This document shows positions 46,050-59,651 of a DNA stretch of 64,000 nucleotides, one piece after another (positions within the stretch are counted from its first letter, which is position 1; each line of letters opens with the position of its first letter). The position numbers and the translations under genes are program-made. Location: assembly GCA_047602405.1 (NCBI GenBank), contig JASGHJ010000002.1, positions 2,688,001 to 2,752,000 on the forward strand, read 5' to 3'. Under the pieces are notes generated by a model. It worked only from the letters and a program-made list of their open reading frames with translations, was not told the DNA's origin and ran no database searches. This DNA is from Anaeromyxobacteraceae bacterium. Lineage in GTDB: Bacteria > Myxococcota > Myxococcia > Myxococcales > Anaeromyxobacteraceae.

Positions 46050-46694
46050 TCAAGGCGAGACGGCCCCGGGGCCCGCCGCGAGCAGGGCCGCGACGTCGAC
46101 CCGCGGGTCGGCCCCCTCGAGCCACGCGCGCAGCACGGCCACCCCCCGCGCGCCCGCGGCGATCACCCGGGGGGCCGCGCCGGGGTCCACGCCCCCCAGG
46201 CCGACGAGCGGGAGGCCGAGGCGGGCCGCGTCCGCGAGGGCGGCGAGCCCGACCGGCGGCCCGTAGGCGCGCTTCGAGGGCGTGTCGAAGACCGGGCCGA
46301 ACGTGGCGTAGTCCGCCCCGCCCTCCCGGGCCCGGAGCACGTCGGCCGCGCCGTGGCAGGAGACGCCGACGAGCGCGCCCGGGCCGAGCAGGCGCCGCGC
46401 CTCGGCCGGCGGCACGCCGGCGGACGGCAGGTGCGCCCCCGCCGCGCCCGCGGCGAGCGCGACGTCGAGCCGATTGTTGACGAGCAGGAGCGCCCCCGTG
46501 TCGCGGCAGGCGGCCGCGAGCGCCCGCGCCGCGGCGAGGAGCGCCGCGCCCCCGAGGTCCTTCTCCCGCAGGTGCACCGCCACGCGCCCCGCCGCGCCGC
46601 CCGGGCCGAGCGGCGCGAGCGCCTGCCTGAGGCGCGCCGCCGGATCCGGGTTCACGCGCCGATCCGTGATCAGGTGGACAACCGGAACGCCCAT
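46050..46694 (-). CDS. thiE: Thiamine-phosphate synthase/TenI family
   Basis: HLREKD, LLVN, GAHL, GVSCH, GADY..FGPVFDTPSK, LGGV. Confidence 0.8.
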   Translation of the reverse strand: MGVPVVHLITDRRVNPDPAARLRQALAPLGPGGAAGRVAVHLREKDLGGAALLAAARALAAACRDTGALLLVNNRLDVALAAGAAGAHLPSAGVPPAEARRLLGPGALVGVSCHGAADVLRAREGGADYATFGPVFDTPSKRAYGPPVGLAALADAARLGLPLVGLGGVDPGAAPRVIAAGARGVAVLRAWLEGADPRVDVAALLAAGPGAVSP

Positions 46695-53913: not shown

Positions 53914-55219
53914 ATGCCGGTCCCCACGCCACGCACCGCGCTCCTCCTCGCGCTCGGGGGCGCCCTCGCCGTCGCGGCGGCCGGCGCGCCGTGGCTCGCG
54001 TGGGCGCTCGCCGCGCTCGACGCGGCCGTGCTCGCCCTCGCGCTCGCCGACGCCTGGCGGGCGCCGCGCGCGGAGGCGTTCCGCGCGGCGCGGCGGGTGC
54101 GCGAGCCGCTCTCGGCGTTCGCCCCGAACCGGGTCGAGCTCGCGATCGAGCACCTCGGCCCCCGCGCCGTCCGGCTCGAGCTCGCCGACGCGCCCCCGGC
54201 CAGCTTCGACGCCACCGGCCACCGCGCCCGGCTCGTGCTCCCGGCCGGCGCGACGGCGACCCTCGCCTACGACGCCGTCCCGCGCGCCCGCGGCGCCGCG
54301 CGCTTCGGGGACCTGCACCTCCGCGCGCTTGGGCCGCTCGGCCTCGCGGCCCGCCCCGTCCTGCTCCCGCTCGCGCGCGACGTGCGCGTCTACCCGGACC
54401 TGCGCGCGCTCGCGGCGCTCCCCGGCGCCGAGGCCGCGGAGCCCGGGCGCCACCGCGTGCGCGGCCACCGCGAGGGGCGCGAGTTCGAGTCGCTCCGGCC
54501 GTACCTCTCCGGCGACGACCTCCGCTCGGTCGACTGGAAGGCGACCGCCCGCCGGGGCGCGCCGGTCGTGAGGGCCTGGCAGCCGGAGCGGAACCAGACC
54601 GTGTGGCTGCTCGTCGACGAGGGGCGGCTCCTCTCCGCGCGGCTCGCCGACGGCCGGACCAAGCTCGACCACGCCGTGGACGCCGCCCTCGCGCTCGCGC
54701 GCGCGGCCTCGCGCCGGGGCGACCGGGCCGGGGCGGTGCCTCTTCGGGGCGGAGGTCGAGCGGGTCGTGCCGCCGGGCTCCGGCCGCGGGCAGCTCGGGC
54801 CGCTCGCCGAGGCGCTGCACGCCGCCGAGGCGCGGATCGAGGAGTCGGACTACGGCGCCGCGTTCGACGCGCTCGCCGCGCGCCAGCGCCGCCGCGCGCT
54901 CGTCGTGCTGTTCACCGACCTCGCCGATCCCGACACGAGCGCCGCGCTGCTCGCCCGGGCGGCGCTGCTCCGCCGCACGCACCTCGTCCTCGTCGCGGCC
55001 GTCTCCGACTCCGAGGTCGCCGACGCGGCCCGGACCCGGCCCGCGTCCGCCGACGAGGCGTACGCCCGGCTCGCCGCGGAGCGGATCCTGGACGAGCGGG
55101 AGGCGGCGCGGTCCCGCCTCGCCGCCGCCGGGGTCCGGGTGGTGTCGGTGCCGGCCCGGGAGCTCGCCGCCGCCGCCGTGGGCGGGTACCTCGAGGCGAA
55201 GGCCACCGGCGCCCTGTGA
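53914..55219 (+). CDS. DUF58/VWA-like protein (frameshift near 54740)
   Basis: GREFESLRPY..GDDLRSVDWKATAR; C-terminal RRALVVLFTD in the next frame. Confidence 0.8.
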
Positions 55220-55342
55220 CGCGCCGGGACGTACCTCGGGCGCGCGACCGTTGACCGCAGCCGGCTGGGGTCACGAACGCAGGACGGCTTGCTCCCTCCC
55301 ATCTGCCGTGTTAACCGACCCGCTCTCCCGGAGGGCTTTCCC

Positions 55343-57547
55343 TTGAAGAGACTCGTCTCTCTCGCCGTCCTCGCCGCCGCGTCCGTCACACGCGCCGAGG
55401 AGGGCATGTGGATGCCGCAGCAGATCCCCGACCTCGCCGGCCGCCTGCAGACGCTCGGGTTCAAGGGCGACGCGAAGGCCTTCGCCGACCTGACCGGCCA
55501 GCCGATGGGCGCCATCGTGTCGCTCGGCGGCTGCTCGGCGTCCTTCGTGTCGCCGGACGGCCTCATCGCCACGAACCACCACTGCATCCAGGGCGCGCTC
55601 CAGTACAACTCGACGCCCGAGCGCGACCTCGTGGAGGACGGCTACGTCGCCCGCAGCCGCGACGAGGAGCTCTCCAACGGGCCCGGCTCGCGCGTCTACG
55701 TGACCGTCTCCGTGAAGGAGGTCACCGACGAGGTCGTGGGCAAGCTCGACCCGCGCATGGACGACGTCGCGCGCGCGAAGCTCGTCGAGAAGCGGGTCAA
55801 GGACGAGACCGGCAAGTGCGAGAAGATGGGGCTGCGCTGCACGGTGGCCTCCTTCTTCGAGGGCGCCCGGTACTTCGCCATCGGCCAGCAGGAGATCGAG
55901 GACGTCCGGCTCGTCTACGCGCCGCAGAACAACGTCGGCAACTTCGGCGGCGAGGTCGACAACTGGATGTGGCCGCGCCACTCCGGCGACTTCTCGCTCT
56001 ACCGCGCCTACGTCGGCAAGGACGGGAAGTCGAGGCCGTTCTCGAAGGAGAACGTCCCCTACCGCCCGGCGCATCATCTCCCGGTGAACACCGGGGGCAT
56101 CTCCCCCGGCGAGCTCGCGCTCGTGGCCGGCTACCCGGGCCGCACCTACCGCCTCCAGACCGTGGCCGAGGTGAAGGACATGGTGGAGTGGGCCTACCCG
56201 CGCACCGTGAGGCGCTACGGCGACATGCTCGCGATCCTCGCCGACCTCTCGGCGAAGAGCCGCGCCACCGGCATCAAGGTGACGACCCGCGTCCGGGGCC
56301 TCGCGAACACCATGAAGAAGATGAAGGGCGTCCTCGAGGGCGCCGGGCGCCTCGGCATCCTCGGGGAGCTCGCCGGCGAGGAGAAGGCGCTCCAGGCGTG
56401 GATCGACGCCGACGGCCGGCGGAAGAAGGAGTGGGGCGACGTCATCGCGAAGATCGACGCCATCCAGGCGAAGCGCGCCGAGACCCGGGAGCGCGACGCG
56501 CTCCTCGTGGAGCTCCTGCCGCCGGGCGGCCGCTCCGCCTCGTTCATGAGCACCGCGCGCACGCTCTGGAAGATGGCCGACGAGCGCCCGAAGCCGGACG
56601 CCGAGCGCCAGCCGGAGTTCATGCAGCGCAACTGGGCGCGGCTGAAGGAGGGGCTCGAGCGGCTCGACCGCTCCCTCGACGTCGGCGCCGACCGCGCGCT
56701 CCTGCGCTACACGCTCGCCGACGTCGCCGCGCTGCCGGCCACGAGCCGGATCCCGGCCGTGGACGCGGCCATCGGCCTCGCGCCCGGCATGGCCAGGGAC
56801 GAGGCGGCGAAGAAGATCGACGCCTTCCTCGACGGCCTCTACGCCTCGACGAAGCTCGGCGACAAGGCCACCCGCCTCGAGCTCTTCGAGAAGGCGAGCC
56901 GGAAGGACCTGCAGGGCTCGACCGACGGCTTCGTGAAGCTCGCCATCGCGCTCGCGCCGATGGAGAAGGAGCTCGAGACCCAGAAGTACGCCCGCGAGGG
57001 CGCGCGCTCCCGCTGTGCGCCGCTCTACGCGAAGGCGCGGCTCGCGAAGGCGGGCGGGCTGCTCTCGCCCGACGCGAACTCCACGCTGCGCGTCACCTAC
57101 GGCCTCGTCGAGGGCGTCGTGCCGCGTGACGGCATGGTCTACGTGCCCCAGACCCGGCTCGCCGGCGTGATGGAGAAGCACAAGGCCGGCGACGCCGAGT
57201 TCGACGTCCCCGCGCCGGTGCGCGAGGCCATCAAGGCCCAGGAGGCCGCCGGCAAGGGCCCGTGGGTCGACCCGAAGCTCGGCGACGTCCCCGTGAACGC
57301 GCTCGCGTCGGTGGACATCACCGGCGGCAACTCCGGCTCCGCCGTGATGAACGGCAAGGGCGAGTTCGTCGGGCTCATGTTCGACGGGACGTGGGAGTCG
57401 ATCACGAGCGACCTCAAGTTCGACCCCGCCTCGACCCGGTCGATCTTCGTCGACGTCCGGTACCTCCTCTGGTCCCTGCAGAACGTCGCGAAGGCGACGA
57501 ACCTGCTCGAGGAGCTCGGCGTGAAGGCGGGGGCGGCGGGGAACTAG
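55343..57547 (+). CDS. S46-family dipeptidyl peptidase
   Basis: EEGMW, GCSASFVS..GL..TNHHC, DNWMWPRH.GDF, DANSTLR, DITGGNSGS, FDG. Confidence 0.93.
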   Translation: MKRLVSLAVLAAASVTRAEEGMWMPQQIPDLAGRLQTLGFKGDAKAFADLTGQPMGAIVSLGGCSASFVSPDGLIATNHHCIQGALQYNSTPERDLVEDGYVARSRDEELSNGPGSRVYVTVSVKEVTDEVVGKLDPRMDDVARAKLVEKRVKDETGKCEKMGLRCTVASFFEGARYFAIGQQEIEDVRLVYAPQNNVGNFGGEVDNWMWPRHSGDFSLYRAYVGKDGKSRPFSKENVPYRPAHHLPVNTGGISPGELALVAGYPGRTYRLQTVAEVKDMVEWAYPRTVRRYGDMLAILADLSAKSRATGIKVTTRVRGLANTMKKMKGVLEGAGRLGILGELAGEEKALQAWIDADGRRKKEWGDVIAKIDAIQAKRAETRERDALLVELLPPGGRSASFMSTARTLWKMADERPKPDAERQPEFMQRNWARLKEGLERLDRSLDVGADRALLRYTLADVAALPATSRIPAVDAAIGLAPGMARDEAAKKIDAFLDGLYASTKLGDKATRLELFEKASRKDLQGSTDGFVKLAIALAPMEKELETQKYAREGARSRCAPLYAKARLAKAGGLLSPDANSTLRVTYGLVEGVVPRDGMVYVPQTRLAGVMEKHKAGDAEFDVPAPVREAIKAQEAAGKGPWVDPKLGDVPVNALASVDITGGNSGSAVMNGKGEFVGLMFDGTWESITSDLKFDPASTRSIFVDVRYLLWSLQNVAKATNLLEELGVKAGAAGN

Positions 57548-57573
57548 CCGGCCGTCGGTCGCCGATGGTTTCG

Positions 57574-57608
57574 AGGGGCGCCGTCCGAGAGGGCGGCGCC
57601 CTTCTTCA
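57574..57608 (+). terminator. Intrinsic terminator after the S46 peptidase gene
   Basis: GGGCGCCGTCC-GAGA-GGGCGGCGCCC stem followed by TTCTTC. Confidence 0.7.
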
Positions 57609-57628
57609 TGGGCGCCGGGGCCGCCGTA

Positions 57629-57959
57629 TTGACGGTCGGTGAATATCGAGGCGCAACGGGCGGTTGCGCGGGATAATTCGGCAGTTCAGCCGGCTGAACT
57701 GCGGCTCGAGGATGGGCTTCGGTCGGGACGTCGGAACACCGCGCCGGCCACGGGCGGCGGGCACGGCCCGCTGCGCAGCGTGTTCACGCCCGGGGCAGAG
57801 GGAGAGTGGGTCGAGCTTACGCCCGGTTCGCCGGGTCGATGCATGGACGGACGGCCGTTGACTCACCGTGACTATCCAGTCGTGACGGGCGGTTACGCGG
57901 AACAATTCGCTGGTTCAAGCGCTTGAACCAAGCCCGGAGGAGGGGCTTCGGTCGGGACG
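57629..57959 (+). ncRNA. Tandem pair of ~102-nt structured non-coding repeats (57629-57730 and 57858-57959), unknown family
   Basis: Ungapped alignment, 76/102 identical by hand count; compensatory stem changes; conserved GGC-TTCG-GTC. Confidence 0.5.
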
Positions 57960-58196
57960 GTTTTCCCTACTGGCAGGGATACCGCATATCGGCGGCCAAC
58001 CTGCCGTGACCACTTGGTTTGACAGTTGGAGCGGAGCGCCCGCCACACGAGCGTGATGCCGATGGCGGCAATGCCCAGGCCTGCAGGCCCGAGCAGCGAG
58101 CCCTGGGCGGACCCCCACCAGAGGAGTCCGCCCAAGATGATCAGGCCGGGCGCGTGGCCCGCAGGGCGGAAGGGCGGGCGGCCCGCGGCCGCCAAG

Positions 58197-58457
58197 CTAC
58201 CCTTCCCTCCCCCCGCACTGACAGGCCTCGTCCCTCCCGGCCAGCACCTCCAGGATCCTGGCGCGGCCGCAGGCGGTGCAGACGGTCGCGAGGTGGACCA
58301 CCATCGCCCCCGCGACGAGCAGGCCGCAGGCGATCCACTCGAGCGCCCAGAGCGACGCGAGCGTCGAGACGAGCCCCAGCGCGCCGGCGGCGAGGAGCGC
58401 GCGGGTGCCCCAGCGGAGCTGGAGGGCGCGGGTGGCAGGGACGAGGCGGGCGTTCAC
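58197..58457 (-). CDS. Small two-TM hypothetical protein with CTAC/CQC
   Basis: GGAGG RBS before GTG; directly downstream of the natB-like gene. Confidence 0.5.
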   Translation of the reverse strand: MNARLVPATRALQLRWGTRALLAAGALGLVSTLASLWALEWIACGLLVAGAMVVHLATVCTACGRARILEVLAGRDEACQCGGREG

Positions 58458-58469
58458 GTGGGTCCTCCT

Positions 58470-59651
58470 CTACGCCTTGTCGAAGAGCAGCTTCCCGCCC
58501 TCGAAGAGGCGGGAGGCGACGCGCACCAGGACGATGGCGAGCACGAGGCTCGCGGCCATGGCCATCGCGGCGTCCTGGAAGGCGACCTGCTCGCCGCGGA
58601 GCAGCCGCACCATCACGAGCTGCTCGCCGAGCGCCGGGGTGAGCTTCATCCAGAGCTTCTCCTTCACCGGCGTCATGGCGAGCACGAAGCCGGGGATGGC
58701 CGGGACGAGCATGAGGAAGCTCATCGTGCTCTGCGCCGCCCGGAACGAGCGCGCCCGGGCCGCCACGACGACCATGAGGGCGTTCGCCGCGAGGAGCAGC
58801 GGGATGCAGAGCAGGAAGAGCTGCAGCACCACCGCGGGGTCGAGCTTGAACGAGAGCCCGAGCGTCTCGATGGGCGCGATGACCGGCAGCAGCGCGAAGC
58901 CGACGGAGGTCTCGGCGAGGGCGATGAGCGAGAAGGTCGAGGAGGTCGCGATCTTCCCGAGCACGAGCGCCTGGCGCGGCACCGGGTTCGCGAGGAGCGG
59001 CTCGAGCGAGAGCCGCTCCCGCTCGCCGGCGGTCATGTCGATCGCCGTCGACATGCCCCCGATGAAGATCGCGAGCACGAGGAAGTACGGCATCACGCTG
59101 AAGAGCATGGCCGCCCGGCTCTCGGCGGTGGAGACGTCCACCTTCTCGATGGCGAGCGGCTCCACCACGGCGGGGTGCACGCCGCGCATGATGAGGCGCT
59201 GGGCGCCGGTGAGCCGGCCCCACAGCTCGAGCCGGTCCTCGAGCCGGTCGGCGGTGACCTTGGCCGCCCGGCGCGACTCGTCGACGTAGAGCCGGACCGG
59301 CGCGGGCTTCCCCTCGCGGAGGTTCTCGGCGAACGTCTCCGGGATCGCGAGCACCACGTCCACGTCGCCGGCGCGGACCGCCTTCTCCGGCTCGGCGGGC
59401 GGGGCGACGGGGTCGAGCCCGCCCTCGCGCAGGAACGCGACGAGCTGCGGCGCGCGCTCGGGGTTCACGACCGGGAGCTTCACCGCGTCCTCGATCGCCG
59501 ACTTCACGTCCTTCGTGACGAGCGAGAAGGACCCGGCCATCACGAGCGGGCCCATGAGCGGGAAGATGAGCGCCATCGACAGCGTGCGGCGGTCGCGGAG
59601 CCCGTCCCGGAGCTCCTTCCAGAAGACCGTGCGTGCGAGCTTCCAGGTCAT
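58470..59651 (-). CDS. natB: ABC-2 type permease (NatB-like)
   Basis: KELRDGLRDRRT, AIDMTAGERERLSLEPLL..PV....VLGK. Confidence 0.8.
   Translation of the reverse strand: MTWKLARTVFWKELRDGLRDRRTLSMALIFPLMGPLVMAGSFSLVTKDVKSAIEDAVKLPVVNPERAPQLVAFLREGGLDPVAPPAEPEKAVRAGDVDVVLAIPETFAENLREGKPAPVRLYVDESRRAAKVTADRLEDRLELWGRLTGAQRLIMRGVHPAVVEPLAIEKVDVSTAESRAAMLFSVMPYFLVLAIFIGGMSTAIDMTAGERERLSLEPLLANPVPRQALVLGKIATSSTFSLIALAETSVGFALLPVIAPIETLGLSFKLDPAVVLQLFLLCIPLLLAANALMVVVAARARSFRAAQSTMSFLMLVPAIPGFVLAMTPVKEKLWMKLTPALGEQLVMVRLLRGEQVAFQDAAMAMAASLVLAIVLVRVASRLFEGGKLLFDKA

Follow-up and report, generated by a model that had tools for sequence, protein, structure and literature searches.

Dispersed palindromic repeats in a myxobacterial genome as putative stray copies of the linker of a multicopy HNH nuclease gene

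A pair of 102-nt intergenic repeats in a 64,000-nt stretch of an Anaeromyxobacteraceae genome (6.16 Mb, 74% G+C), referred to here as the window, appears from sequence comparison to consist of stray copies of the linker stretch of a multicopy HNH gene and not to be a new small RNA, a reading to which we assign a probability of roughly 0.55. In minus-strand orientation, its sequence corresponds to the proline-rich linker encoded by a DUF222-like HNH endonuclease gene. We propose that the repeats are free-standing copies of an in-frame linker stretch of ~90–105 bp and putative binding sites of the gene's own protein, which would likely help to spread these sites as non-autonomous, REP-like elements.

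The two copies (57629–57730 and 57858–57959) were described in an earlier reading made from the letters of the window alone (hereafter the sequence-only reading). Realignment bore out that they are ungapped, 229 bp apart and identical at 76 of 102 positions, and the two strings of a proposed stem A, the common 17-mer and the TTGAC at both starts are all present in the window sequence; blastn against the whole genome returned the pair at E 1.7e-12. A 650-bp interval holds both copies, with a peptidase S46 gene on the left and a convergent ABC-2 transporter operon on the right (Table 1). The statement that the pair lies past a terminator held in part, since a GC-rich hairpin does follow the S46 stop codon, but the terminator scan called none. 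The segment after the second copy had been taken for a variable module and turned out to be an inverted third module, whose arm end is approximate (to about 58039). Module 1, with its frame open across the module, and module 2, with the same palindrome, matched the HNH linker of a second genome of the genus, G010, at 43 and 52 of 91 ungapped positions, respectively. Module 3 was the second-best non-training match of a profile of the arm and was identical to the HNH linker of this genome at 45 of 91 positions; its G010 counterpart translates like the linker of the metagenome protein P0002.

Table 1. Features of the repeat locus, in window coordinates
Feature	Coordinates	Strand	Remarks
Peptidase S46 gene, left neighbour	55289..57547	+	Pfam PF10459, E 2e-226
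GC-rich hairpin	57573..57604	+	After the S46 peptidase gene; terminator-like by eye
Solo module 1	57624..57730	- (gene's sense)	Putative copy of DUF222-like HNH linker; nhmmer and covariance-model family match
Module 1 palindrome	57684..57699	.	Perfect, 16 bp, GTTC-N8-GAAC class
X block	57734..57788	.	Imperfect inverted repeat; 79% over 48 nt to G010 locus L002
Solo module 2	57853..57959	-	Putative copy of HNH linker; stop codons in the gene's frame
Module 2 palindrome	57913..57928	.	Perfect, 16 bp; identical to the palindrome within the G010 HNH gene
Solo module 3	57964..58039	+	Inverted; CCCTA-N6-AGGG-type imperfect palindrome (57964–57979) plus arm; missed by the sequence-only reading
Small membrane-protein ORF, right neighbour	58197..58457	-	Last in the convergent ABC-2 transporter operon

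At the same locus, G010 holds one forward module, an inverted module and an X block after the inverted module, which suggests that the pair in the window arose long ago, when a ~230-bp unit was duplicated locally. The G010 locus also has an extra ORF of ~130 aa between the modules and the ABC operon (L002:1730–2122) that is absent from the window. No module was found downstream of the S46 orthologues in four other genomes (G008, G018, G023, and G027), and the S46 locus of G033, which is cut at a contig end, contained no module match. A tRNA-linked site was considered and rejected, as the sole tRNA of the window, tRNA-Ala(TGC) at 46368–46450 on the minus strand, is 11 kb away. Upstream of the locus, the ORF after a MoxR ATPase, which we take to be a DUF58-type gene, is apparently split over two frames (53914–55254 and 54767–55219), a possible frameshift.

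The module belongs to a small dispersed family. A strict pattern found eight copies in this genome and five in G010 and was absent from the other 35 of the 37 genomes of the genus; the exact pattern, when reversed, had 0 copies here, and searching the reversed genome with a profile of the eight copies yielded no match below E 1.6. Further homologs, for which the sequence-only reading had suggested a covariance-model search, were indeed recovered by a covariance model without structure, which matched 10 times in this genome and 11 times in G010, and across 151 genomes of the order the remaining matches were weak (E above 5e-5) and mostly over the palindrome. Each module is composed of a 16-bp palindrome and a 60-bp asymmetric arm in an alignment that is nearly gap-free over about 90–110 nt, and gaps are almost absent over ~90 nt despite roughly 30–65% divergence among the copies. 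Convergent-gene intervals hold six of nine module loci against a background of 13–19% (p 0.002), no same-strand gene lies directly 3′ of the copies in our own gene calls, and inverted doublets are present in the window, at C2:1222.7k and at C1:1022.1k. Outside the HNH gene, no arm-bearing copy was located within any called gene. Inspection of the module ends, which are old and could have decayed, made no target-site duplication or terminal repeat evident. At least six module loci are common to this genome and G010, where the modules are 53–72% identical and the flanking DNA is mostly 80–98% identical, indicating that the modules are old and inherited rather than freshly moving. This comparison shows persistence by vertical inheritance at loci common to the two genomes.

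The link to a gene came from an arm-only profile, whose best non-training match (C2:1271118) lies inside an opposite-strand gene, C2:1270435–1271646, that encodes an HNH protein (PF01844, E 2.2e-7). The DUF222 match of this protein is below the Pfam threshold (E 0.0035, 17.2 bits against a cut-off of 24.4), and DUF222 is found on 42% of the members of the neighbouring atlas cluster. In the G010 orthologue, which is 63% identical in amino acids, the exact palindrome of module 2 and the whole arm are present in frame in the interdomain linker. The meaningful strand of the repeat is accordingly the minus strand, on which it reads as the linker, and not the plus strand that the sequence-only reading had favoured. 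In a held-out test, a profile made from solo arms only matched both orthologous linkers at the position right behind the palindrome, with 33.6 and 29.1 bits, and gave 33.6 bits to a metagenome contig with the linker of G010; every other linker among the 129 from genomes and 71 from metagenomes described below scored 4.4 bits or less. One solo copy, C2:951432, extends into the coding sequence of the ribbon-helix-helix domain (E 1.6e-11; 76% over 142 nt), and the independent metagenome proteins P0002 and P0003 encode the same arm, and for these reasons the arm-bearing solos most likely come from the HNH gene. The orthologous genes of this genome and G010 diverge most in the linker (42–53% identity vs 83–85% just downstream) and carry different palindrome types, both of which occur as solos in both genomes. 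This pattern is compatible with, though no proof of, sequence exchange between solos and gene.

Within the gene family, the palindrome itself appears to be maintained. The HNH family was detected in 35 of the 37 genomes of the genus, with 1–44 matches each, and at 10 loci in this genome. From 150 loci, 129 distinct linkers were retained by requiring both domains and leaving out duplicates and incomplete or over-long cases. The motif BTTS-N7/8-GAAH was present in 100 of these 129 linkers, many of which come from related genomes and are hence not independent; the mean was 1.4 after synonymous recoding and 2.6 after shuffling. Its density was 4.3 per kb in linkers, 0.42 in N-domain DNA and 0.07 in C-domain DNA, it was distributed over two reading frames, with 71 hits in one and 46 in the other, and the inner eight bases were complementary in 130 of 172 pairs compared to 93.6 after shuffling. 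Altogether, 58 distinct palindrome motifs were counted, which are clade-specific and sit at the same place in the linkers; in metagenomes, the motif was present in 52 of 71 linkers from 80 loci. Taken together, these counts show that selection acts on the palindrome at the DNA level within the gene family. A multicopy clade of DUF222-like HNH genes, with loci from G008, G018, G023, G027, and G033, shows no linker palindrome, so that not every clade requires the site for its multiplication. Some HNH genes hold two or three tandem palindromes, and tandem clusters of three to five with a 32–42-nt period and variable spacers were observed both between genes and within linkers (L480 in G150, L472 in G089, and L074/L136/L141).

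Pieces of the gene are scattered unevenly. When 11 HNH genes were blasted against this genome, orphan N-domain, C-domain and linker pieces were found at 0, 8 and 20 loci, of which 1 of the 8 C-domain pieces (C1:1731856–1732103) and 15 of the 20 linker pieces were convincing; a protein-profile scan detected no domain remnants at the solo loci. This tally shows a scattering that is, as judged by alignment, biased to linker pieces, with nearly none from other parts of the gene. Stop codons in the gene frame were present in 8 of 21 solo windows. A second linker family, derived from other HNH paralogues, found only in this genome and G010 among the 37 and with loci common to both, gave 21 matches, 19 of them intergenic and two in genes (C1:290641 and C1:1594553), one solo being 97% identical over 67 nt to the linker of a living gene. 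Its solos are 55–70 nt long and fall into two sub-types (for example, C1:466832, C1:255482/255630, C1:308827, and C2:2994609). A third palindrome, GCGCAGACGTCTGCGC, outnumbers all other perfect 16-bp palindromes in the genome, with 21 exact occurrences and a core that occurs 26 times (for example, at C1:1920908, C2:656956, and C2:2602435); 20 of the 26 are intergenic, one is in an HNH linker and five are in frame in unrelated genes, with no common flanks.

In other genomes, the balance between genes and solos varied. Five genomes of another family carried 12–31 palindromes each against at most four near-full-length HNH genes, and 28 weak-match loci comprised seven in HNH genes, 18 solos and three without a palindrome. 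Non-gene palindromes of G130 were non-coding in 17 of 19 cases, several of them inside repeats of 200–470 nt; six of 17 fetched loci matched the flanks of its other HNH genes, and its solos share just the palindrome with the gene linker. Solos were few where intact genes abound: in five such genomes, 46 palindrome loci divided into 34 full genes, nine truncated genes and three without a gene, and a genus-wide pattern search placed 12 of 15 loci from outside this genome in linkage with a gene. As the loci in other genomes were found via the palindrome, these sets are biased towards its retention. Relatives contain a graded series of deletion derivatives that keep the linker. For several HNH genes of G010 (L081, L084, L085, and L088), the two flanks correspond to separate HNH loci in this genome, which may reflect either inter-copy recombination or mis-assembly at repeats.

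The sequence-only reading had interpreted the pair as a duplicated sRNA or as an array of a constant scaffold with variable modules, and this for the most part did not survive comparison across copies, where the palindrome alone is conserved as paired. RNAalifold on 15 copies retained the 6-bp palindrome stem alone. When the helices of the sequence-only reading were imposed on the 15 copies, the proposed stem A was paired in 66.7% of cells and the UUCG hairpin in 64.4%, with one cell each changed on both sides; stem A was Watson–Crick at all six pairs in just 1 of 23 modules, copy 1 of the window, and neither is conserved as a helix. The pairing claimed for the palindrome was upheld, with full complementarity in 15 of 15 copies. 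Its two innermost positions were also complementary in all 15, even though a hairpin loop would leave them unpaired; this suggests dyad symmetry of the DNA rather than an RNA hairpin and fits the fallback that the same reading had offered, an operator or cruciform DNA element. Only three palindrome variants are present among the 15 copies, so that the covariation rests on few events, and template-switch correction could also yield covariation in a palindrome. The whole imposed structure beat 500 of 500 shuffles in cells paired and in covariation score, a signal that stems from the palindrome, and the folding z-scores of the arm were scattered around zero. A/T patches recur in the arm every ~11 bp (permutation p 0.0005), a periodicity that we give little weight because the p value ignores A/T clustering and common ancestry. 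Consensus-based readings of the arm as an IHF-like or sigma-54 site were rejected when a spacing count in intergenic DNA gave no clear peak at the observed spacing.

An RNA function could be that of a structured sRNA family, as in the sequence-only reading, or that of antisense RNAs that silence the nuclease genes. We consider this improbable. The copies do sit after gene ends with no same-strand protein gene directly downstream, most begin with a TTGAC-like hexamer when read antisense to the gene, and the palindrome can form a 6-bp hairpin, but the Rfam scan proposed with the sequence-only reading, run over 56500–59200 to E 10, gave two chance matches, neither of them on a copy, and a scan for sigma-70 promoters and terminators called none at the copies. 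No structure is conserved past the palindrome, whose complementarity reaches positions that RNA could not pair; moreover, some copies end 12–77 nt from a convergent gene, and their ~35–72% identity to surviving genes would allow poor antisense pairing. The palindrome as an operator of a host regulator such as LexA, with the copies as decoy or regulatory sites, is in our view highly improbable. Its GTTCA/TGAAC half-sites are also those of the deltaproteobacterial SOS box (10.1101/2020.12.14.422803), and several copies are near DNA-repair genes (neighbours named by reading their sequences). In that box, however, TGAAC precedes GTTCA across a 4-bp spacer, whereas in the repeat the half-sites face the opposite way across a spacer of 6 bp, and the repeat is therefore not an SOS box. 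Properly oriented SOS-like boxes do precede repair and HNH genes here, and the module was found in just two of the 37 genomes of the genus, with most copies lacking an adjoining promoter-bearing gene.

Two further explanations share with ours the relation to the HNH gene and differ in how the copies came about. In one, an independent miniature repeat of the REP or MITE kind was moved by another transposase, and the HNH linker was a tolerant landing pad that captured it in frame. The in-frame occurrences of the third palindrome in five non-HNH genes, from which it follows that palindromes can land in genes here, argue for it, as do the inverted doublets, which resemble REPINs (PMC3116915), and HNH elements in G021 with terminal inverted repeats, possible passengers of another transposase. 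We still judge it rather unlikely: no arm-bearing copy is in a called gene other than the HNH gene, one solo runs on into HNH coding sequence, unrelated metagenome proteins encode the same arm, the palindrome keeps one position in 100 of 129 linkers and differs in sequence between clades, and the sole Y1-type transposase gene recovered by a motif search, a heuristic that may miss others, lies 132 kb away from the closest copy and has no such motif in the 600 bp around it. The other explanation sees the copies as passive remains of dead HNH genes with no active spread, the palindrome surviving either because it is bound, whether as a decoy for the protein of surviving genes or by some host protein, or through template-switch self-correction. 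Such decay would fit the coding remnants that adjoin some solos, the vertical inheritance at loci common with G010, the graded internal deletions in relatives and the stop codons in the gene frame of some solo windows. Random decay should leave pieces of the N- and C-domains too, and these are nearly absent, while the near absence of gaps among such diverged copies, the solo with 97% identity to a living linker, and the inverted doublets and the palindromes clustered in tandem, up to five together, away from genes, both of which need copying, all argue against it, so that we regard it as unlikely.

An AlphaFold2 model of the HNH protein has a confident N-domain, a disordered linker (131–186) and two further domains. 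A fold search with residues 1–126 ranked the DNA-binding domains of ParB, KorB, Spo0J and Noc first (Z 5.4–5.8 for the domain alone, up to 7.6 for the full model), a match that is below significance by the tools' own notes, with Foldseek E above 0.4; a PDB profile search with the N-domain gave nothing below E 0.25 and no sequence-profile match to ParB. Residues 190–241 matched TraM-type ribbon-helix-helix folds (Z 5.8) and residues 253–331 matched HNH nucleases. The protein is thus predicted to comprise a ParB/KorB-like helix-turn-helix, a disordered linker, a ribbon-helix-helix and an HNH domain.

The HNH gene is preceded by an SOS-box-like motif and by a motif like the LexA-independent damage promoter (RecA-NDp-like) of mycobacteria (PMC5656591). 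This damage-promoter-like motif also precedes genes read as ssb, radA and a UvrD-type helicase. The pattern TGTCRG-N10-TAnnnT, which resembles that mycobacterial promoter, had 17 intergenic matches, several before repair genes (C1:20445, C1:165538, C2:159020, C2:1842806, and C2:1271674), which suggests a PafBC-like regulon in this myxobacterium. A multicopy ORF family, TnpB-like by eye (C1:600280, C1:1538098, C1:645872, and C2:2703461), has both the SOS-like box and the damage-promoter motif in common with the HNH gene. TTGAC is found 170–215 nt before the start in 99 of 129 HNH genes. The HNH elements of G021 (loci L055, L108–L118, and L177–L193) have conserved non-coding flanks of ~420 nt at the 5′ end and ~250 nt at the 3′ end in addition to their terminal inverted repeats.

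With linker homology, selection on the palindrome, linker-biased scattering and persistence at common loci shown as above, we infer the following course of events. The HNH protein would be made after DNA damage, as the SOS-box-like and RecA-NDp-like motifs suggest, and a dimer of it would, with odds slightly better than even, bind the 16-bp palindrome. Nicking or cutting nearby, followed by repair, might then leave deleted mini-elements that retain the site as well as copies elsewhere, a step about which we are somewhat doubtful. The window pair would have arisen when one composite unit was duplicated locally.

Several known systems resemble this arrangement in part. REPINs and their RAYT nucleases (PMC3116915 and PMC3733652) likewise involve short palindromes between genes, often as inverted doublets and between convergent genes, which are vertically inherited and associated with a nuclease gene present once or in a few copies. 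In contrast, the linked protein here is an HNH nuclease and not a Y1 tyrosine transposase, the repeat is inside coding sequence instead of flanking the gene, and in this lineage a 60-bp asymmetric arm travels along; the hairpin foot lacks a GTAG/CGTC tetranucleotide, the bases adjacent to the palindrome being variable and CGTC lying ~30 nt off in some copies, and a repeat-flanked Y1 (RAYT) gene was not found with the motif heuristic. MITEs are non-coding deletion derivatives of insertion sequences that keep a cis-acting site and outnumber the parent gene, and the solos are similarly non-coding and more numerous than their putative parent, but the part retained here is an internal mid-gene site and not two ends, with no target duplication seen. 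ParB, KorB and Noc proteins have 16-bp palindromic sites, and the predicted helix-turn-helix fold of the N-domain combined with a dyad site of similar size recalls them, although the model has no apparent CTPase domain, the N-domain is joined to ribbon-helix-helix and HNH domains, and the fold match alone is non-significant.

Closer in gene content are the DUF222/REP13E12 repeats (PF02720), which, according to the sections of PMC13061034 and PMC10589994 at our disposal, are multicopy dispersed HNH genes with a DUF222-like N-terminus, a C-terminal HNH and exchange between copies; the genes here differ in being myxobacterial and weakly DUF222-like. Neither source, in those sections, mentions an internal palindrome or solo linker copies for these genes, and both describe the function of the genes as undefined, PMC13061034 doing so for the REP13E12 repeats. 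A wider search of open literature on DUF222/REP13E12 HNH genes, Anaeromyxobacter HNH copies and ParB-like or ribbon-helix-helix HNH elements returned, in the text that was accessible, no description of internal palindromes or solo copies. HEARO and IscB (OMEGA) elements also combine a selfish HNH ORF with an attached conserved non-coding sequence, but their proteins have RuvC and a guide RNA from the 5′ UTR (PMC9755519), while the HNH protein here gave no RuvC family match and the Rfam scan of the window region 56500–59200 had no match over the repeat copies, to RF02033 or any other family.

These observations replace a candidate sRNA with a testable link between unexplained multicopy HNH genes and dispersed palindromic repeats. 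As a tentative extension, in which we have less belief than doubt, the DUF222-like HNH genes may form a distinct class of selfish element with a cis-acting site mid-frame, in which damage leads to binding and cutting of the palindrome and hence to whole copies as well as solo families of 16–100 bp, each paralogue having its own palindrome and repeat family and exchanging sequence between solos and linker. If this is true, it would provide an HNH-driven origin for untagged REP-like palindromes, some REP classes being without a known mobiliser according to PMC3733652, as well as a mechanism, open to testing, for the DUF222/REP13E12 repeats that have long lacked an explanation; if the protein binds and copies its site, it would constitute a new class of selfish element. 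The clade-varying internal palindromes are a ready substrate for binding and cleavage assays and, if the protein recognises them, would represent a natural library of site-specific nucleases of ~350 aa with diverged 16-bp targets. For readers of genomes, the case also serves as a warning that covarying intergenic palindromes in these myxobacteria can be relics of a gene linker and not RNAs. A further REP-like hairpin family of ~50 nt with a variable apical stem was observed at no fewer than 65 loci of this genome (at least 65; for example, C1:932169–932234 and C2:251465–251517).
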